A stretch of 32,000 nt of DNA from Candidatus Saccharimonadota bacterium (GCA_016700135.1 CP065004.1:1110001-1142000), one strand, 5' to 3'. Counted from the first letter of the stretch, positions 1,919 through 16,262 are shown. Numbers and translations: made by a program. The notes: generated from the letters alone by a model not told the origin.

Positions 1919-2908
1919 ATGGCGAAATTGAATGATTTAGTGAGTTTGCGACCTGAAAGTCTAAGAGACTATGTTGGTCAGCAAAATGTTGTCAAAACAC
2001 TCCGATTATTTCTGGATGCGGTAAAAAACCGTGGTACCCCTGCAGAGCATATCCTTTTTTATGGGCCACCGGGTATCGGAAAAACAACACTCTCTCATAT
2101 TATTGCTCGTGAACTCAAAGGCACAATCCGTGTCACTTCAGGGGCTGCAATCACAAAAACCGGTGATTTGGCTGCAATTTTGACCAATCTGAAAGATAAT
2201 GATGTTTTGTTTGTAGATGAAATCCACAGACTTCCGAAACCTGTTGAGGAAATGCTGTATCCGGTGATTGAAGATTATTTTCTCGATATTGTGATCGGGA
2301 AAGGACCGTCTGCGCGAACGGTGCGTTTGCCTGTTCCGAAGATTACGGTGGTAGGGGCAACGACAAAACTTGCTCTCATCTCAGCCCCGATGCGTGACCG
2401 TTTCGGATTGTTGCTTCGCCTTGATTATTATACCGATCAGGATATGGTTGATATCATTATGAGATCGGCTGAACTTATGCATATCAAAATTACCAAAGGC
2501 GCAGCCTCTCAGATTGCCAAGCGTTCACGAAAAACCCCTCGTGTAGCTAATCGCATATTAAAACGTGCCCGAGATATTGTAGAAGTCGACGGACATGAGA
2601 TGATCGACGAAGATGTAGCTTTAAAGTTGTTTTCACTTTTGGAAATTGATGAAATGGGTTTGTCGGATATTGATATCCAGTATCTCCGCGTCATTGCAGA
2701 GCGTTTCCAAAACAGCCCGGTAGGGATTGAAACAATAGCCTCTTCCCTTGCGGAAGACAGAAGAACGATTGAAGAGTTTATTGAACCGTACTTATTGAGA
2801 ATCGGGTTTATTAAAAAAACTCCGCGCGGTCGGGTGGTGACACCGAAAGGATGTAAACATCTCAATATTGTGATTGATTCATCTGAGCAGCAAACAATAA
2901 TTGAATAA
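1919..2908 (+). CDS. ruvB: Holliday junction DNA helicase RuvB (AAA+ ATPase)
   Basis: Walker A GPPGIGKTT, Walker B VLFVDEIHRL, sensor region VGATT, RTPRVANRILKR and a C-terminal winged-helix region. The length (329 aa) is typical. TATAAT at 1904-1909 lies 9 nt before the ATG. Confidence 0.95.
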   Translation: MAKLNDLVSLRPESLRDYVGQQNVVKTLRLFLDAVKNRGTPAEHILFYGPPGIGKTTLSHIIARELKGTIRVTSGAAITKTGDLAAILTNLKDNDVLFVDEIHRLPKPVEEMLYPVIEDYFLDIVIGKGPSARTVRLPVPKITVVGATTKLALISAPMRDRFGLLLRLDYYTDQDMVDIIMRSAELMHIKITKGAASQIAKRSRKTPRVANRILKRARDIVEVDGHEMIDEDVALKLFSLLEIDEMGLSDIDIQYLRVIAERFQNSPVGIETIASSLAEDRRTIEEFIEPYLLRIGFIKKTPRGRVVTPKGCKHLNIVIDSSEQQTIIE

Positions 2909-4341
2909 TGTTATATTGGAGTATGGATGGAGAACCGCAATTCAAACCTGACTTAAAGAAGCCGCTTCTGAAAAGATCTGCGCTAGGACTTGCTGCTTTG
3001 GCGCTTTCAGCCACTGTCGGATTGACCGTCGATCATGTCACTGCACCATATAATCCTATTTTGGGAGGACCGAATAGATCAGAGTCAGCAATCGGTACAA
3101 AATTACTGGAAAAAACAGCTGAACTTCAACAAGATCATACGGAGAAAACCGGAAATCCAAAAGGCGGTATCTATGACCTTGTACACCTTGCCCCCCGCTT
3201 GTGGCACAGCGGGAACATTCCGCATTATTTAAAAGAGTTTTTGGGCGATAGATATACATCGGGTTTGCCTAGTTCAGCGGAGTTTTCTGAAGCGGTACAA
3301 GAATCAGAAAGCCCAGTGTTGCCTAAGTGGCTTGATACCGAAAGGTTTGATATCCAGTCATATGAAGCTGCAAACGGCGATCACATTGATACCCTAACAT
3401 TTAACTTAAAAGATGCTAAACCTCACCATTTGATACCCTGGCAGCGAACCGGCACGCTAACAGCACCGAATATCTACCTGGCCGATCCGAATCCCCTTTC
3501 TCGGAGTGACAATACATATACTCTAGGATCAAATCCGTACTTAGCACACTCTAACGGTGCTACTATTGAGCTTACATTTCCGAGTAATCAAACCGTCGTT
3601 TTTGGTGCAGGTTGGCATGAGGTCAGCCCACTCTATCGTTATGCAGACAAGGTTGAAGCAGAGAAAACCACGCAATATTACGGAAGAATTGATCCCAACA
3701 ATGATGCACAAGCTGCAACGGGTATTTATTCGATTCAAAATGGCTCTGTCACGATTCATCACGAATATGTCGGGCACCTTGATAGTGCGGATTATCCTCC
3801 ACAGTTTTTGTATATAGGAAATGGTACTGCCAGAATTTTGAAAGGAGCGCAACTTACGGATATACTAGAAAATCCCCCGTACGATGGCACTGTCACGCAG
3901 ATTGCTTATACCTTTGAATACTCAGATGAAGAACTGGAACTAATCAATGATGCAATGTACTCGTCCGAAGAAGAAAAAAAGCATGCATTAGATACTCTTC
4001 AAAAAAGTCTCGCTGATGATCTCACTCAACCGATCGATGTTACTTGGATGACTGTCGCAATAACAGAAGATGGAGATACGATTGTCAGCTTTGCTTTGAA
4101 CAGGGATACTGAAGCAGAGACAATAGAAGGTTCATATAAAGTTGTTGCATCAGTGAAAGACATCATTGAGAGTACAAAGAAACAGCCCGGATCTGTTCTT
4201 ACTCGCATGTTTACGGTACACCTTGGAGCACAAGGATCAACAGGTAATGTAATAATCACGAATGGTCAATCTTCAATCCCTGAAGGAGTAATAACCTATG
4301 AGACAATGCAGGAACTCATAAGCGATAAGCAGCGGGATTAG
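2908..4341 (+). CDS. Hypothetical membrane-anchored or exported protein (477 aa), no recognisable domain
   Basis: Long ORF with one N-terminal hydrophobic segment (SALGLAALALSATVGLTV) after a basic stretch. Its ATG overlaps the ruvB stop by 1 nt (TAATG at 2906-2910). No catalytic motif recognised. Confidence 0.65.
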   Translation: MLYWSMDGEPQFKPDLKKPLLKRSALGLAALALSATVGLTVDHVTAPYNPILGGPNRSESAIGTKLLEKTAELQQDHTEKTGNPKGGIYDLVHLAPRLWHSGNIPHYLKEFLGDRYTSGLPSSAEFSEAVQESESPVLPKWLDTERFDIQSYEAANGDHIDTLTFNLKDAKPHHLIPWQRTGTLTAPNIYLADPNPLSRSDNTYTLGSNPYLAHSNGATIELTFPSNQTVVFGAGWHEVSPLYRYADKVEAEKTTQYYGRIDPNNDAQAATGIYSIQNGSVTIHHEYVGHLDSADYPPQFLYIGNGTARILKGAQLTDILENPPYDGTVTQIAYTFEYSDEELELINDAMYSSEEEKKHALDTLQKSLADDLTQPIDVTWMTVAITEDGDTIVSFALNRDTEAETIEGSYKVVASVKDIIESTKKQPGSVLTRMFTVHLGAQGSTGNVIITNGQSSIPEGVITYETMQELISDKQRD

Positions 4342-4389: not shown

Positions 4390-4473
4390 GCCGCGGTGGT
4401 GAAATGGCATACACGCTGGACTTAAAATCCAGTGCCTGAATAAGGCGTGAGAGTTCGACCCTCTCCCGCGGCA
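4390..4473 (+). tRNA. tRNA-Leu (anticodon TAA), type II with long variable arm, no encoded CCA
   Basis: Acceptor stem GCCGCGG/CCGCGGC with discriminator A. Anticodon stem-loop is ctgga-ctTAAaa-tccag, the long variable arm is tgcctgaataaggcgt, and the T arm is gagag-ttcgacc-ctctc. Confidence 0.9.
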
Positions 4474-4499
4474 CAGCAGTAGAATCTTCTTCACACAAT

Positions 4500-4508
4500 T
4501 GTTATAAT
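4500..4508 (+). promoter_or_regulatory. Extended -10 promoter element TGtTATAAT upstream of tRNA-Thr
   Basis: The same 9-mer TGTTATAAT as at 4354. It ends only 9 nt before the mature tRNA 5' end at 4518. Confidence 0.5.
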
Positions 4509-4517
4509 ACTTACTTA

Positions 4518-4590
4518 GCCGACTTAGCTCAGTGGTAGTAGCACCAATTTTGTAAATTGGGGGTCGTCGGTTCAAATCCGACAGTCGGCT
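4518..4590 (+). tRNA. tRNA-Thr (anticodon TGT), no encoded CCA
   Basis: Acceptor stem GCCGACT/AGTCGGC with discriminator T. Anticodon stem-loop is ccaat-ttTGTaa-attgg and the T arm is gtcgg-ttcaaat-ccgac. Confidence 0.85.
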
Positions 4591-4662
4591 CAAGAAAGCA
4601 TAAGGCTGTAGGCTGTAGATAGTAGAATAGAAATTTCAATATAGGTGAATATCTTTCTACAC

Positions 4663-4668
4663 TATAAT
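4663..4668 (+). promoter_or_regulatory. -10 hexamer TATAAT upstream of tRNA-Arg
   Basis: The sequence acacTATAATtac lies 34 nt upstream of the tRNA start at 4703. Confidence 0.4.
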
Positions 4669-4702
4669 TACAACCTACGACCTATCGCCTACGAGCAATT
4701 CA

Positions 4703-4776
4703 GACCCTGTAGCTCAATTGGATAGAGCAACTCCCTTCTAAGGAGTAGGTTGTGAGTTCGATTCTCGCCAGGGTCG
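4703..4776 (+). tRNA. tRNA-Arg (anticodon TCT), no encoded CCA
   Basis: Acceptor stem GACCCTG/CAGGGTC with discriminator G. Anticodon stem-loop is actcc-ctTCTaa-ggagt and the T arm is gtgag-ttcgatt-ctcgc. Confidence 0.9.
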
Positions 4777-4779
4777 CAT

Positions 4780-5187
4780 ATGCCACATACATTCCAACCG
4801 GTCATACTTGCTGTTATTGAACAGGACGGTAAATATCTCTTTACTAAACGAATTGATGATTTTCCTGATTACCACGGCAAATGGCAGCTTTCGGGCGGCG
4901 GCCTTGAATTCGGAGAAAATCCTGTTGAAGGTCTTCGTCGGGAACTCAGAGAAGAGCTTGGAGTTGAAGTTACTGATGTGAAGATAATTCCGTTTGTAGA
5001 TACCCGCGTCAGAAATGACTGGCAGGGAGTATTTATCTCATTTCACTGTCACCTTGAAAACCCGGACGCGGAGATTTATCTGAATGAAGAGGCTTCAGAG
5101 TATCGCTGGTTTGAGAAATCTGAGATTGACTACTCCCAATTCCCCATCTTCGAGGGATGTGTCGAGATAGTCCAAAAACTAGTGTAA
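4780..5187 (+). CDS. Nudix hydrolase (MutT-like, 135 aa)
   Basis: Complete Nudix box GGGLEFGENPVEGLRRELREELGV (GX5EX7REUXEEXGU). The ATG begins 3 nt after the tRNA-Arg discriminator base. Confidence 0.85.
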   Translation: MPHTFQPVILAVIEQDGKYLFTKRIDDFPDYHGKWQLSGGGLEFGENPVEGLRRELREELGVEVTDVKIIPFVDTRVRNDWQGVFISFHCHLENPDAEIYLNEEASEYRWFEKSEIDYSQFPIFEGCVEIVQKLV

Positions 5188-5242
5188 ACAACACAGATCT
5201 ATCATGATTGTTCCATAACTGTATCGCATGTACAATAACATA

Positions 5243-5957
5243 GGCTCTAGACTAGCACATTAACAATTTGTAATAGTTCATTGTAAAGGATCGATGGGGA
5301 TTTGCTCCATCTCCATTCACACTCTTTCAAGTGTAATGGAAAGTTTTTCTTTACACCATTGAACTTAACGAGACGTCTTTTACAAAAGGACCAGAATGAC
5401 TCTATGCCATTGATATGGACCCCTTTTGTATTTGAGAACTCATTTTTCTTGTGATTGATTCTCAAATGTTTGTCATACCCGACATCAACAAGTCCGTTGT
5501 ATCCGCTCCACGAATCTGAATATACAGTACTGTTCAAGTCAATCTTTCCCTTCATAACAGCATGTAGCGTTCTTCTTTTACAGTTTGGAATGATACGAGT
5601 AAATACACGTCCTTGACGCTCATATATCCCAAATACTACCTGCTTAAATGACGTCCCACGACCTCTTTTACTTGACTTGCCTCTCATCCTTCGAGGTCCA
5701 AAGTATGATTCATCAATTTCTATCTCACCACCAACATATCGTTGCATCTGGTGCACTTGGTGATGATATATGAGTTGACGAATATTATTGTAATATTTGT
5801 TGACTGTATTGCGGTTGAGACCCAAAATACCAGAGGTCTGTGTAGCACTCAGATCGTGTGCAAAACACCATAGTATCTTTTTTCTCTTGTATTTTGATAT
5901 CGGCCTATTGTTACAAACCATACCTCTAGTTTAGCACTACTCTGCTAGTCTAGAGCC
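5243..5957 (-). mobile_element. IS1595-family insertion sequence, copy A (715 bp)
   Basis: 15-bp perfect terminal inverted repeats GGCTCTAGACTAGCA (5243-5257) and TGCTAGTCTAGAGCC (5943-5957). It is flanked by the direct repeat TAACATA (5236-5242 and 5958-5964) and has a single transposase ORF. By eye it is identical to 15548-16262. Confidence 0.85.
5247..5921 (-). CDS. IS1595-family (ISXO2-like DDE) transposase, 224 aa
   Basis: Motifs EIDESYFG, RGRG...K..VFGIYER.G.V, SDSWSGY, HINGIESFW..KRRL and FPLHLKECEWR are typical of the DDE_Tnp_IS1595 domain. The N-terminal helix-turn-helix is SATQTSGILGLNRNTVNKY. Confidence 0.8.
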   Translation of the reverse strand: MVCNNRPISKYKRKKILWCFAHDLSATQTSGILGLNRNTVNKYYNNIRQLIYHHQVHQMQRYVGGEIEIDESYFGPRRMRGKSSKRGRGTSFKQVVFGIYERQGRVFTRIIPNCKRRTLHAVMKGKIDLNSTVYSDSWSGYNGLVDVGYDKHLRINHKKNEFSNTKGVHINGIESFWSFCKRRLVKFNGVKKNFPLHLKECEWRWSKSPSILYNELLQIVNVLV

Positions 5958-5983
5958 TAACATATACCAGTTAACTCACCAAT

Positions 5984-7972
5984 ATGGACCGAGAAGGAAT
6001 GTACGGCATAAAAAAACATACGCATCTTGTTCCTTCATCAGACGTAGGGCGATATCTAAATCCCGAACAATTAGCGGAAAATAATAAACCGCTCATCCTC
6101 GGTGATGTCGGGCCGCATTTCTACGCCGCTGCATCTCTCTATCCCACAACTCCGGAAGAGGGTTCATCCACAAATATTCTTGTATGGCCGAAAGAAATGG
6201 ATCCTGAAAATCCGATCGGACTTGAAGACGTATCACATGATGATATGTGGTCGCTGTCAGAGTATGCTTTAGGAATCCTTGATGTGTATCCGGACTCTGC
6301 CGTGACTTACGGCATAAGTGAAGATCCGAGAGGTATTACCGGGCAGACACGAAAAGCACTCGGTACAAGCATTCAGGCTTTCCATCTACATAACTACATT
6401 GACGTCAGAAAAGATCTGCAACTGCCTAAGTCCAAAGGAATATACCGATCAATCAGAGAACCTTTTCCGCAGTTTATAGCTTCAGCTTTCAAGCAATTTC
6501 TTGATCAAAATGGCGTAACTCTTGAGGGCTTCAGAACCGTTGAGTCTCGTGAGAAAAACAGTGTACTTGATCCATATGTAAACGTAGGCGGGATTGTATA
6601 CTCAAGTACCGATACTCAACCAGGGCCGTTGCGAACGGCTCATTTTGCTGATGCCATGTCATTGATACATACTACTTATTATGGCTTTCATGATGAGGTT
6701 ATGCGAATATTTTTCTCAAATTATGATGCGGTTCGTGACAGCAAATGGTCCCTCCCGTACGATCCCCGTGAACAGGCGGATATCGTCCGTGCAATAGAAA
6801 ACAGTCAATTTATCACAGACGGCAATCTGGCAAATTTTCTTATCAAAGCATCCGGAAGAGTTGTAAAATCGGATAGTGATGCTTTATCTTCTGATTTGAA
6901 AATCTTTCGTAGTCCGACATACTCCGTAGGTGCAGTTAAGAACGCAGACGGTGTTTTATGCCTTGCCGTAAATCCTCATTTTTACGCACAGCGGGCAGGG
7001 GGATTACAGACGCTTGGAATAGAAGTGGCTGAGCGCATACGACATGAAGATAAAGATCCTTATGAGGTAATCAGACAACGTACTGAGCGGGCCAAAAATG
7101 CTGATCTTCATATTCGGGAGTCACTGAAATCAGCTACTCTGGAAGCTGTAAGCTCTGAAGAAAGCAACTATGTTCTTCTTGAAGGGCATCCTATACAGAT
7201 TCTGAATAATATATCAGCTCAATTTGATGAAGAGACGGAGCAGCTCATATCTGAGGAAATGGAAAAGATTATCGCTGCAAAAAAAAGAAGCTTGCCTGAA
7301 GGCACCGCATTTTATAACGGACCTGCTTTTTTTCCGCATGTTATTCGAAAAGACGAGACAGGACAATTTCTTATTGAGGGATCGAATTACTCATCAGAAG
7401 GATATTTTCGGCATGTTGCTTTACGTGACTCGGAAGCAATTCACAGAGGGCTTACTGAGCGTGGTATAACAGCTCGGGCCGGACTGGCTGTATCAATCCT
7501 TGTTGAGGTGCAGTTTGACAACGGAGACAGAAAAATTGTCCTTACAAAAAGTGCACCGACTGAGTATGCGCCTCAGGGTGCAGCACAAATGCCGGGAGGT
7601 AGTTATCAGCAAAAATCTGACAGAATACATTTGCCGGATCCGGTTCTACTGGCACAGCAGGAGCTTGTCGAAGAAATGGGCTTATACACGGATGTGACTA
7701 GCATCGAACCGCTTGCTTACCTGACAGGTGCGGGAAAGACAAATCCCACTCTTATATACAAAACAGTTCTTGATGAAACTCAGTACCATGAAATGGCCAA
7801 CAATATCGCTGCCGGTATTGAACATGCTCATGTTGACAATGATAAAGCTCACGAGTTTGTCTTGATTGATATTGAGGAAGAAATACCTGAGAAAATAACC
7901 AACGGTGCCAGACGGGTACTTGAAGTTGTTGAAGATATTCGCAAAAAAGAAAGTGCCCGGGAGAGGACTTGA
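5984..7972 (+). CDS. Hypothetical 662-aa protein with an N-terminal HIT/GalT-like motif and a C-terminal Nudix-like box
   Basis: Residues ~64-138 resemble a HIT fold: NILVWPKE, then GITGQT...SIQAFHLHNY (H134-L-H136-N-Y at 6383-6397). The C-terminus has MPGGSYQQKSDRIHLPDPVLLAQQELVEEMGL (about 7589-7686), a Nudix-box-like ELxEExGL with an insertion and Q in place of R. The last 19 nt overlap the antisense tRNA-Leu. Confidence 0.6.
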   Translation: MDREGMYGIKKHTHLVPSSDVGRYLNPEQLAENNKPLILGDVGPHFYAAASLYPTTPEEGSSTNILVWPKEMDPENPIGLEDVSHDDMWSLSEYALGILDVYPDSAVTYGISEDPRGITGQTRKALGTSIQAFHLHNYIDVRKDLQLPKSKGIYRSIREPFPQFIASAFKQFLDQNGVTLEGFRTVESREKNSVLDPYVNVGGIVYSSTDTQPGPLRTAHFADAMSLIHTTYYGFHDEVMRIFFSNYDAVRDSKWSLPYDPREQADIVRAIENSQFITDGNLANFLIKASGRVVKSDSDALSSDLKIFRSPTYSVGAVKNADGVLCLAVNPHFYAQRAGGLQTLGIEVAERIRHEDKDPYEVIRQRTERAKNADLHIRESLKSATLEAVSSEESNYVLLEGHPIQILNNISAQFDEETEQLISEEMEKIIAAKKRSLPEGTAFYNGPAFFPHVIRKDETGQFLIEGSNYSSEGYFRHVALRDSEAIHRGLTERGITARAGLAVSILVEVQFDNGDRKIVLTKSAPTEYAPQGAAQMPGGSYQQKSDRIHLPDPVLLAQQELVEEMGLYTDVTSIEPLAYLTGAGKTNPTLIYKTVLDETQYHEMANNIAAGIEHAHVDNDKAHEFVLIDIEEEIPEKITNGARRVLEVVEDIRKKESARERT

Positions 7973-8035
7973 ACCTCCACATCTTGCGATACAGCCCCCT
8001 CAAGACTGCGCGTCTGCCAGTTCCGCCACCCGGGC
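7954..8035 (-). tRNA. tRNA-Leu (anticodon GAG), type II, no encoded CCA
   Basis: The reverse complement reads GCCCGGG-tg-gcggaactggcagacgc-g-cagtc-ttGAGgg-ggctg-tatcgcaagatgt-ggagg-ttcaagt-cctct-CCCGGGC-a, a clean cloverleaf with a long variable arm. Confidence 0.9.
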
Positions 8036-13905: not shown

Positions 13906-14988
13906 TCAAGTAAGTGTATGAGTTCCATACATATGGCACTCTTTAGGTAAAATAGATAATAGGTAATCCATAGGTGAAATATTGTTCAGGCTTTTGTGAA
14001 CTCGCTTTGTATTGTACCAGACGAGGTATTCAATAAGGTGACGATTGAATGATCCGATACCGGTCCACTTGGTATAGATGTAGGGGTTCATAAATTCTTC
14101 CTGGAGTGTTCTGTTTGCTCGCTCAATAAAGGCATTGATCTTGGGACATCTGGGGTAGATAAAGAGGTGTGGGATATTGTTTTCTTCCAGATAGTCATGG
14201 AAGTTTCCCAGATACTCGAGGCCGTTATCTGTTTGTATGGTTTTTATACCATCTTGTATTGGGTATACTAGTTCCAGTCTTCTCATAAAATCAGCACCGT
14301 TTCGGCTGTTGAGTTTTGAGTATCCGTAGGAGAACTGGAATTTGAGTTTGATGTCCACTGCATTGAAGACATACAGCTTGATTCCGTGTACAAACTTCGT
14401 GATGGTATCAATCTCAATGTATCCGGTATCTTCCACCTTGGGAGACCGCTTGACCTTCTGTCGGTACTTTACTTTCCGTTTTGCAAAGCCACTTGCTGGA
14501 TTGTGATAGATCCGGTAGGTCTTGCGCTGCAGGTTGTGTCTTTTGATCACTTTTCCAATGGTTGACTCAGATATAGTTGAAATTCCTTCCTGTAGGCAAT
14601 ACTCATCAAGTAAGGGCTTGATCTTCTCCTTTCCCAAACAAAAGTATTGTTCTCGAATCTCTTTGATAAAGGATATGACCTTCGGGTGAGTCTCCATACG
14701 TCGGGGTGTCTTTGGCTTGGTTGTCTCTGGTATCAGGCTATCCAACTGCCCTTCTGAATCTCGCCGTCTCTTCCTCCATCGAAACAATGTCCTTCGTGAT
14801 ATCCCATATGCATCAACTGCAGCTTGTATCCCGTACTTCTCTGCAAATGTCAGAACATCGTTTCTGATTTGTGCTACATCTGACTGATTGTAGTCTGATA
14901 GAGATCGTATCTTTTTCATAAGATCTCTATTGTACTGCCAGTCATAACTCCTAATTACTCGAAGCTGATCTCCTCCCCATTTACTCAT
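13906..14988 (-). CDS. Integrase-core (rve) DDE transposase, IS481-like, 360 aa
   Basis: N-terminal HTH (GISRRTLFRWRKRR), DDE core (YIEIDTI, IQTDNGLEY, RCPKINAFIERANRTLQEEF) and the C-terminal YNTKRVHKSLNNISPMDYL typical of IS3/IS481-type integrase cores. It is a single ORF with no frameshift. Confidence 0.8.
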   Translation of the reverse strand: MSKWGGDQLRVIRSYDWQYNRDLMKKIRSLSDYNQSDVAQIRNDVLTFAEKYGIQAAVDAYGISRRTLFRWRKRRRDSEGQLDSLIPETTKPKTPRRMETHPKVISFIKEIREQYFCLGKEKIKPLLDEYCLQEGISTISESTIGKVIKRHNLQRKTYRIYHNPASGFAKRKVKYRQKVKRSPKVEDTGYIEIDTITKFVHGIKLYVFNAVDIKLKFQFSYGYSKLNSRNGADFMRRLELVYPIQDGIKTIQTDNGLEYLGNFHDYLEENNIPHLFIYPRCPKINAFIERANRTLQEEFMNPYIYTKWTGIGSFNRHLIEYLVWYNTKRVHKSLNNISPMDYLLSILPKECHMYGTHTLT

Positions 14989-15547: not shown

Positions 15548-16262
15548 GGCTCTAGACTAGCACATTAACAATTTGTAATAGTTCATTGTAAAGGATCGAT
15601 GGGGATTTGCTCCATCTCCATTCACACTCTTTCAAGTGTAATGGAAAGTTTTTCTTTACACCATTGAACTTAACGAGACGTCTTTTACAAAAGGACCAGA
15701 ATGACTCTATGCCATTGATATGGACCCCTTTTGTATTTGAGAACTCATTTTTCTTGTGATTGATTCTCAAATGTTTGTCATACCCGACATCAACAAGTCC
15801 GTTGTATCCGCTCCACGAATCTGAATATACAGTACTGTTCAAGTCAATCTTTCCCTTCATAACAGCATGTAGCGTTCTTCTTTTACAGTTTGGAATGATA
15901 CGAGTAAATACACGTCCTTGACGCTCATATATCCCAAATACTACCTGCTTAAATGACGTCCCACGACCTCTTTTACTTGACTTGCCTCTCATCCTTCGAG
16001 GTCCAAAGTATGATTCATCAATTTCTATCTCACCACCAACATATCGTTGCATCTGGTGCACTTGGTGATGATATATGAGTTGACGAATATTATTGTAATA
16101 TTTGTTGACTGTATTGCGGTTGAGACCCAAAATACCAGAGGTCTGTGTAGCACTCAGATCGTGTGCAAAACACCATAGTATCTTTTTTCTCTTGTATTTT
16201 GATATCGGCCTATTGTTACAAACCATACCTCTAGTTTAGCACTACTCTGCTAGTCTAGAGCC
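15548..16262 (-). mobile_element. IS1595-family insertion sequence, copy B (715 bp)
   Basis: Same 15-bp terminal inverted repeats as copy A, offset by exactly +10305. It is flanked by the direct repeat TTTGCAA (15541-15547 and 16263-16269). The right-hand duplication abuts the uvrB stop codon (16270-16272). Confidence 0.85.
15552..16226 (-). CDS. IS1595-family transposase, identical to 5247-5921
   Basis: The ORF-track translation is identical over all 224 aa. Confidence 0.8.
   Translation of the reverse strand: MVCNNRPISKYKRKKILWCFAHDLSATQTSGILGLNRNTVNKYYNNIRQLIYHHQVHQMQRYVGGEIEIDESYFGPRRMRGKSSKRGRGTSFKQVVFGIYERQGRVFTRIIPNCKRRTLHAVMKGKIDLNSTVYSDSWSGYNGLVDVGYDKHLRINHKKNEFSNTKGVHINGIESFWSFCKRRLVKFNGVKKNFPLHLKECEWRWSKSPSILYNELLQIVNVLV

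Follow-up and report, generated by a model that had tools for sequence, protein, structure and literature searches.

Enzymes of the HIT and Nudix superfamilies form the two main classes that cleave nucleoside-diphosphate-X (NDP-X) compounds. Among the former, Hint and Fhit are domains of about 110-150 residues that form homodimers. According to a preprint on class II GalT (bioRxiv 10.64898/2026.09.13.751320), the nucleophile in Apa2 and Escherichia coli GalT is the second histidine of the motif; the alpha-phosphate is bound by a serine at position -5 from this histidine, and the intermediate is stabilised by the residue at +2. On the Nudix side, human NUDT22 has no NUDIX box of the usual form (PMC5688067) and hydrolyses UDP-glucose to UMP and glucose-1-phosphate (PMC10101856). 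Here we analyse a 32,000-nucleotide stretch of a Candidatus Saccharimonadota genome (GCA_016700135.1, CP065004.1:1110001-1142000; hereafter the window), in which one gene encodes a 662-residue protein that very probably carries a HIT-type domain and a Nudix module in the same chain. An earlier note on this DNA had proposed such a fusion, next to a canonical Nudix hydrolase gene. We give odds of about one in two that the protein is a two-module enzyme acting on NDP-X compounds, most likely nucleotide-sugars, in their turnover or salvage.

The fusion gene is an intact open reading frame (ORF) at positions 5984-7972 (+ strand), as the earlier note had placed it, and all the motifs that had been quoted can be located in its translation (NILVWPKE at residues 64-71, GITGQT at 117-122, SIQAFHLHNY at 129-138, MPGGSY at 536-541, and QQELVEEMGL at 558-567). 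The protein is deposited as 'hypothetical protein' (NCBI QQS43646.1) under Candidatus Roizmanbacteria (Patescibacteria, Microgenomates group), and its full 662-residue sequence gave no match in Pfam and NCBIfam scans. Six full-length orthologues were found in independent assemblies, with 97, 83, 82, 79, 60, and 49% identity. Compared to the 83% orthologue, the ratio of nonsynonymous to synonymous substitution rates (dN/dS) was 0.07 in the N half (residues 1-389) and 0.10 in the C half (residues 390-662), or about 0.08 for the ORF: both halves are under equally strong purifying selection, and this includes the junction between them. The same uninterrupted architecture in independent assemblies, together with purifying selection, therefore excludes a join created by a frameshift or by assembly. 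Relatives are scarce: a search of a 5.8-billion-sequence index found only seven, and genome and metagenome scans yielded close orthologues only. The records of the L008 and L009/L001 orthologues are labelled 'uncultured Gammaproteobacteria bacterium', a label that looks wrong and is at odds with the deposit of the identical window protein under Candidatus Roizmanbacteria and of a stand-alone homologue under the Microgenomates group.

Each half of the protein has counterparts that exist on their own. An exhaustive search among 1.84 billion representatives recovered 43 clusters of the N-terminal domain (N-domain) family, most members of which are stand-alone proteins of 360-400 aa matching residues ~25-385 of the fusion. 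Conversely, P0019 (260 aa) is a stand-alone C-terminal domain (C-domain) that matches only residues 422-645. Judging from these alignments, the protein is therefore a fusion of two modules found separately elsewhere, joined near residues 385-420. The boundary, read from the secondary structure of the AlphaFold model, comprises the long C-terminal helix of the N-domain (359-388) and a variable linker (~389-420; 7058..7243, + strand), and the stand-alone homologues P0006, P0007, and P0008 terminate at it. Neither Pfam nor NCBIfam has a model for the N-domain, scans of the separate halves and of the family consensus having given no usable match to it; phmmer and profile searches of the PDB with the full-length alignment returned noise, save for one weak Nudix match. 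When 39 aligned family members were used for another word-indexed search for homologues, no proteins came up beyond those already known. The N-domain family is hence previously unannotated and very rare.

An AlphaFold model of the N-domain, built from the 39-member alignment, reached a mean per-residue confidence (pLDDT) of 91.5 and a predicted template-modelling score (pTM) of 0.91. Its first lobe (residues ~30-145; 6071..6418, + strand) is probably an alpha/beta lobe of HIT type, with strands at 37-42, 46-50, and 63-69 (the 'NILVWPK' strand), a long helix at 85-101, and strands at 106-111 and 135-139, the last of which opens at H134. This beta-beta-beta-alpha-beta-beta order is that of the HIT fold. 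Across the lobe the family consensus reads G-Y-N-I-S...R-K..P-Q-S-W-x-N-F-H-x-H. When the family profile was run against 177,635 PDB sequences, the top three matches included NitFhit (1ems, E 0.07) and the Hint protein HP_0404 (4zgl, E 0.52), both in the same register, with alignments that begin at the 'HxLVxPK' strand and end at the His motif. DcpS_C, a HIT-type domain, was the only Pfam family that several of the 39 members matched (best E 0.011, sub-threshold), all other sub-threshold matches being singletons.

We also compared the family to HIT proteins by hhalign. Against E. coli HinT alone, P was 0.048. Against a Hint mini-profile of three sequences (HinT, 6d6j, and HINT2), picked without reference to the N-domain family, the N-domain scored 27.0 (P 0.0019), while 200 column shuffles averaged 12.3 (sd 2.2) and reached 19.8 at most; for lobe 1 by itself, P was 2.5e-4. 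A first comparison that contained the Fhit and HP_0404 segments (P 1.7e-5) was discounted, both sequences having been pre-selected by their similarity to the family. The Fhit and Hint profile matches, the recurrence of DcpS_C, and the mini-profile comparison argue for the HIT-like N-terminus first proposed, and the N-domain likely belongs to the HIT superfamily.

Alignments to HIT proteins delimit a modified histidine-triad motif, S129-I-Q-A132-F-H134-L-H136 (6368..6391, + strand). In three separate alignments H134 falls on the central, nucleophilic histidine of Fhit, HP_0404, and HinT (H101), and it is nearly invariant in the 39 family members. H136 occupies the third triad position, being a histidine in most members and Q or N in a few. 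S129 lies at position -5 from H134, as do S156 from H161 in Apa2 and S161 from H166 in E. coli GalT. Given the one register on which the alignments agree, the register of the earlier note was off by two. It is the central and third histidines that remain (H134 and H136), not the first and central, the first position being A132; the motif described as H-x-H-x-N is actually H134-L-H136-N-Y, i.e. HxHN; and the counterpart of the HIT 'GQ' stretch is G127-T-S129-I rather than GITGQT.

Lobe 2 (residues ~176-356; 6509..7051, + strand) is predicted to be a second alpha/beta lobe, running in the model as two strands, a long helix (215-243), a helical insert (247-294), and two further strands (313-319 and 325-331), the last ending in N-P-H332. 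H236 is invariant in it, N246, Y247, P311, Y313, and G345 are nearly so, and H332 is the majority residue. In Foldseek searches of the PDB with the N-domain, the best whole-domain template-modelling (TM) scores came from yeast Apa2, which covered more of the domain than any other match (378 columns, TM 0.30/0.38), and from CDP-diacylglycerol pyrophosphatase (TM 0.38 by target), neither of them significant. A spliceosome chain, which we believe to be a CWF19-like protein with HIT-like domains, was returned with a probability of 0.96, again not significant. The rows with the best E values, beta-lactamases and penicillin-binding proteins, were rejected as spurious (root-mean-square deviation ~20 A, TM ~0.14).

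An hhalign comparison of the N-domain with E. coli GalT alone extended over both lobes (171 columns) with a non-significant E of 0.035. It was left out of residue assignment, matching as it did QSW to QIW in a register in conflict with the HIT register. Lobe 1 compared to lobe 2 gave no significant sign of internal duplication (E 0.086), and lobe 2 had no sequence similarity to the Hint profile. Taken together, the model suggests an Apa2/GalT-like two-lobe layout for the N-domain, yet membership of the GalT family is not established because the HXHXQ motif is absent. The earlier description of the N-terminus as GalT-like thus holds for the predicted two-lobe layout and fails for the motif.

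The C-terminal module (C-module; residues ~421-650; 7244..7933, + strand) consists of a small N-terminal subdomain followed by a Nudix fold. With a full-length AlphaFold model of moderate confidence (pLDDT 67), the top Foldseek match in the PDB was human NUDT22 (5lor_A, E 1e-6, probability 1.0), aligned over ~313 columns to a 290-residue chain with a TM of 0.53 by target, and it was followed by more than 40 other Nudix structures, including MutT, NrtR, NUDT14, NUDT15, and NUDT16. The fusion protein itself had no match to the Pfam NUDIX family (PF00293, gathering score 21.1), while its homologue P0019 passes that score with 30.5 bits; P0005 scored 17 bits. A four-sequence C-domain profile also found Bartonella MutT (3hhj, E 0.0079) in the correct PGG...ELxEELG register. 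Membership of the C-module in the Nudix superfamily is supported by fold and by transitive homology.

The Nudix box of this module, G538-G539 ... D552 ... Q559-E560-L-V-E563-E564-M-G566-L567 (7595..7684, + strand), is non-canonical. Compared to G-X5-E-X7-R-E-U-X-E-E-X-G-U, it has seven extra residues after G539, its D552 precedes the Arg position by 7 residues instead of 8, and Q559 takes the place of the Arg, so the insertion and the Arg-to-Gln change that had been noticed are both real. The first acidic residue is variable (D/N/E). The E560-x-x-E563-E564-x-G566 core is kept, and none of its three glutamates varies among the four C-domains aligned, one of which is that of P0019 at 29% identity. 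NUDT22 being active without a conventional box, the degeneracy of this one is no argument for inactivity.

HIT-type and Nudix assignments both came through structure and profile testing, and we consider it very likely that the two occur in one protein. Failure to find either fold had been named as grounds for abandoning the proposal; for Nudix the fold was found, by Foldseek and by transitive Pfam homology. The ~350 residues between the two regions, previously without assignment, now divide into lobe 2, the boundary helix with its linker, and the N-terminal subdomain of the Nudix module.

Clues to the substrate come from the surroundings of stand-alone N-domain homologues. P0020, present on three contigs (L017-L019), has overlapping or near-overlapping boundaries with both flanking genes: the one on its 5' side joins a cupin to a D-glycero-beta-D-manno-heptose-7-phosphate kinase (rfaE domain I, 339 bits), and the one on its 3' side is a fusion of heptose-1-phosphate adenylyltransferase (rfaE domain II) and GmhB phosphatase. 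Close by are two genes for sugar-nucleotide dehydratases/epimerases, one for a heptosyltransferase, and one for a GT2 glycosyltransferase. P0013 (L012/L013) adjoins GmhB-like, GmhA-like, GHMP-kinase, transaldolase, and oxidoreductase genes, as well as two genes for HddC-like nucleotidyltransferases. P0012 comes after a gene of the beta-phosphoglucomutase family, P0015 has Mur ligase genes on both sides, and P0016 is preceded by YceG. Of the functions listed in the earlier note (Ap4A-type alarmone turnover, nucleotide-sugar or ADP-ribose metabolism), it is nucleotide-sugar metabolism that gains support from these neighbourhoods, and also from the GtrA, GT2, and GH113 genes that precede the Nudix-fusion pair in L001.

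In both heptose clusters the neighbours largely cover the core pathway steps, although no SIS-type isomerase was seen in that of P0020. For this reason the N-domain family appears more likely, on the gene content of these clusters, to be an accessory enzyme than a replacement for a step of the heptose pathway. As a side observation, the stand-alone homologues mark an uncharacterised accessory gene in NDP-heptose biosynthesis clusters (HldE-type kinase, adenylyltransferase-GmhB, GmhA-, HddA-, and HddC-like proteins, heptosyltransferase). The closest stand-alone N-domain homologues, P0007 and P0008 (39-45% identity), have separate Nudix genes within ~1-3 kb, which may represent a looser form of the same association. 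In the case of P0007 (L005-L007) it is a gene of NDPSase_N plus NUDIX type two genes 3', and in that of P0008 (L014/L015) a Nudix gene ~2.5 kb 5'.

If the protein is indeed a two-module enzyme for NDP-X compounds, the HIT enzymes characterised so far, all of them alike in this, suggest how it would work. The alpha-phosphate of NDP-X would be attacked by His134 while Ser129 and His136 hold the phosphates; a covalent intermediate between nucleoside monophosphate (NMP) and His134 would form, the X-phosphate (e.g. a sugar-1-phosphate) would leave, and the NMP would then be handed to phosphate, to another sugar-1-phosphate, or to water. In the Nudix module, Glu560, Glu563, and Glu564 would bind Mg2+, and NDP-sugar would be split into NMP and sugar-1-phosphate, as NUDT22 does. 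The small Nudix hydrolase encoded upstream would probably handle a related nucleotide product, so that the three modules together could serve nucleotide-sugar turnover or nucleotide salvage in a host of reduced metabolism. Patescibacteria have reduced metabolism and biosynthesis and are believed to rely on salvage. The scheme builds on what the analysis showed, namely the two-module architecture, the homology of each module to its superfamily, the conserved candidate catalytic residues, the ancestral gene pair with its IS insertion, and the nucleotide-sugar neighbourhoods of relatives; that catalysis is covalent, which class of substrate is used, and that the modules cooperate are the parts we infer.

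Several observations weigh against it. No sequence match of the N-domain in Pfam, NCBIfam, or the PDB reached a conventional threshold, and Foldseek searches with its high-confidence model found no significant match among PDB or viral structures. The triad is incomplete, its first histidine being replaced by A132 in the window clade and by Asn in most of the family, and the GalT motif H-X-H-X-Q-phi-phi is likewise missing, the window reading A-F-H-L-H-N-Y and the family N-F-H-x-H. The HIT-like character of lobe 2 is drawn from the predicted order of secondary structure and from weak similarities. In the C-module the Nudix box is degenerate, with a Gly-to-Arg change in L001. Gene context adds further points: in the most distant orthologue (L002, 49%) the fusion gene stands straight after tRNA-Arg and the Nudix gene is absent; the neighbours in the window clade (tRNAs, a family-5 solute-binding protein, SecG, UvrC, UvrA, UvrB, and RuvAB) are uninformative; and the homologues in heptose clusters are ~20-24% identical to the window protein, a distance over which context may not transfer.

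A bolder form of the nucleotide-sugar reading, which we put forward tentatively, would make the N-domain an unrecognised HIT branch, defined by S-x3-[N/A]-phi-H-phi-[H/Q] plus a second lobe with an invariant His, and using NDP-heptoses or related nucleotide-sugars for nucleotidyl transfer or phosphorolysis. It would amount to a Leloir-like exchange step for heptoses, absent from current pathway schemes, and the fusion to an NDP-sugar pyrophosphatase in Microgenomates would be an enzyme dedicated to recycling nucleotide-sugars.

Among the rival explanations, the one that survives best, albeit as an unlikely one, holds that the fusion clears dinucleoside polyphosphates (NpnN, such as Ap4A-type alarmones) or Np4-capped RNA ends, with an Apa2-like NpnN phosphorylase/hydrolase joined to a Nudix module of the asymmetric NpnN hydrolase type. 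Both superfamilies contain NpnN hydrolases; Apa2, the yeast Ap4A phosphorylase, covers more of the N-domain than any other Foldseek match (378 columns); the best HIT match among PDB sequences is Fhit, an ApnA hydrolase; and the conserved neighbourhood contains uvrA, uvrB, uvrC, and ruvAB. But the similarity to Apa2 and Fhit is too weak to carry substrate information, the Nudix module is nearest to NUDT22, a UDP-hexose hydrolase, and not to a Nudix structure of NpnN type, and the genes around the stand-alone homologues belong to nucleotide-sugar and cell-envelope functions rather than to stress or RNA functions.

Somewhat less probable again is that one of the modules is a non-catalytic ligand sensor, the Nudix module binding a nucleotide derivative and regulating the HIT-type domain, or the reverse. 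The Nudix domain of NrtR, which binds ADP-ribose, offers a precedent and is among the Foldseek matches of a protein that has no Pfam NUDIX match; the box has its insertion, the Arg-to-Gln change, a variable first acidic residue, and the Gly-to-Arg change in L001; and the HIT motif has lost its first His. Against it stand the invariance of E560, E563, and E564 across homologues of 29% identity, the conservation of H134, S129, and H236, the equally strong purifying selection on both halves, and the activity of NUDT22 despite its own unconventional box.

Processing of non-canonical RNA 5' caps, by a DcpS-like HIT domain and a decapping-type Nudix module that would remove and subsequently degrade NAD, UDP-sugar, or Np4 caps, is improbable. 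Nudix enzymes do perform RNA decapping, DcpS_C is the only repeatedly, if weakly, matched Pfam family (best E 0.011), and the genes lie among tRNA genes. However, the sub-threshold DcpS_C matches reflect the shared HIT core, the protein has no RNA-binding domain, the neighbourhoods point to sugar nucleotides, and adjacency to tRNA genes is not functional evidence. Lastly, that a frameshift or an error of assembly has merged two genes into the long ORF, an outcome under which the original proposal was to be dropped, has next to no probability left: although each half is known as a stand-alone protein in other organisms, the six assemblies with uninterrupted architecture and the selection spanning the junction already refute it.

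The neighbour that had been singled out, a canonical small Nudix hydrolase gene of MutT/NudI-like type (4780-5187, + strand; 135 aa), is a clear member of its superfamily, with 63.1 bits for Pfam NUDIX (cut-off 21.1) and a canonical Nudix box, GGGLEFGENPVEGLRRELREELGV. Its best NCBIfam match is NudI (61 bits), below the equivalog cut-off, and no other NCBIfam equivalog cut-off was reached. Just 5' of it lies a cluster of tRNA-Leu(UAA), tRNA-Thr(UGU), and tRNA-Arg(UCU) genes (4390..4777, + strand; ARAGORN and Rfam), whose order is shared by L023, L024, and L001. The Nudix gene directly precedes the fusion gene in L001 (the 60% orthologue, with a 7-nt gap), in L008, and in L023 and L024, where the complete order is tRNA-Leu, tRNA-Thr, tRNA-Arg, Nudix gene, a 76-bp gap, and fusion gene.

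The pair is therefore an ancestral one, as its presence in relatives indicates, and the two genes were probably co-transcribed before an insertion sequence (IS) came between them. The claim of an intact Nudix gene beside the fusion needs one amendment, namely that the neighbour is present in five of six lineages and not in all, L002 being without it. At the other end, a tRNA-Leu(GAG) gene (7953..8035, - strand; ARAGORN and Rfam) runs antisense to the fusion ORF and shares the final 20 nt with it. L001 and L023 have this overlap as well, in contrast to L002, whose orthologue stops 20 nt before the tRNA and has no 'SARERT' tail; conservation of that tail elsewhere probably reflects the tRNA gene, since it is the orthologue without overlap that lacks it. 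Further upstream in the window, a 477-aa ORF (2908-4341, + strand) has a hydrophobic N-terminal segment and no Pfam match. In L001 the pair comes after GtrA, two GT2 glycosyltransferases, and GH113; at the place of the 477-aa ORF this locus has a glycan block of GtrA, GT2, a 510-aa unknown protein, GT2, and GH113.

The element separating the pair is a 715-bp insertion sequence of the IS1595 family (5243-5957, - strand), with a transposase ORF at 5247-5921 (224 aa; Pfam DDE_Tnp_IS1595, E 1.7e-27; NCBIfam transpos_IS1595, 165 bits against a cut-off of 75) and terminal inverted repeats that match perfectly over at least 15 bp (GGCTCTAGACTAGCA...). It is flanked by two copies of a 7-bp target-site duplication, TAACATA (5236..5242 and 5958..5964), and its insertion point lies 26 bp 5' of the fusion start codon. 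A second copy at 15548-16262 is 100% identical and has its own 7-bp duplication, TTTGCAA, which indicates recent transposition. The 97% relative L008 keeps the empty site, its sequence running through the two IS flanks, which overlap by exactly the 7-bp duplication. A promoter and terminator scan around the IS stayed at chance level.

Identity to L008 breaks exactly at the IS site, from 79% over 4723-5242 (tRNA-Arg and Nudix gene) to 97% over 5958-8006 (fusion gene), and synonymous divergence (dS) between the window and L008 is saturated in the Nudix gene and 0.08 in the fusion gene. This jump points to recombination at the junction or to a chimeric 2.5-kb contig of a metagenome-assembled genome. 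Elsewhere in the window, a 360-aa integrase/transposase ORF of rve type (13906-14988, - strand) lies between uvrA and the second IS1595 copy, its 3' end overlapping the start annotated for uvrA. In the window the interval between uvrA and uvrB serves as a landing zone for insertion sequences; in L001 two unrelated small genes occupy it instead.

In the literature searched, we found no paper on HIT-Nudix fusions and none on HIT enzymes in heptose pathways, in keeping with the earlier remark that the architecture was not a recognised one. The fusion is a testable new enzyme family and architecture rather than a new principle. If the nucleotide-sugar reading is true, it would add a new enzyme family to nucleotide-sugar, and possibly NDP-heptose, metabolism, and would show how Patescibacteria recover nucleotides and sugar phosphates.

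Among known systems, NUDT22 (PDB 5lor, 5lou, and 5lf9) is the best structural match of the C-module: the alignment covers essentially the whole NUDT22 chain, and both combine a Nudix fold with a non-conventional Nudix box. At 16% identity, no sequence search finds NUDT22, and hydrolysis of UDP-glucose or UDP-galactose to UMP and hexose-1-phosphate is an activity of NUDT22 to which the C-module is linked by structural resemblance only. Unlike NUDT22, the C-module is fused to a 385-residue HIT-type domain. For that domain, the predicted layout resembles that of the GalT branch (Apa2, E. coli GalT, and ADP-glucose phosphorylase), with two alpha/beta lobes in a single chain of ~360-390 residues; lobe 1 closes with the His motif, in which the nucleophilic His has a Ser at position -5 and H, Q, or N at +2. 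GalT is encoded in the Leloir operon, and the stand-alone N-domain homologues are likewise found among sugar-1-phosphate and nucleotide-sugar genes. In contrast to this branch, to which it has no significant sequence or structure match, the N-domain has the motif [A/N]-phi-H-phi-H, lacks the first His (a Zn ligand in class I GalTs), and has lobe 2 residues H236, N246, Y247, P311, and Y313, invariant or nearly so, without known counterpart.

With the Hint and Fhit proteins (E. coli HinT, human HINT2, NitFhit 1ems, and HP_0404 4zgl) the likeness extends over ~66 columns in one register that takes in the 'h-L-V-x-P-K' strand, the long helix, and the His motif. The N-domain departs from them in having a second, different lobe in the same chain and in the loss of the first His, and the similarity lies below database thresholds. 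The arrangement as a whole recalls the NitFhit 'Rosetta stone' fusions, in which a HIT-type domain is joined to an enzyme that is encoded separately elsewhere, with the difference that the partner here is a Nudix module and not a nitrilase.

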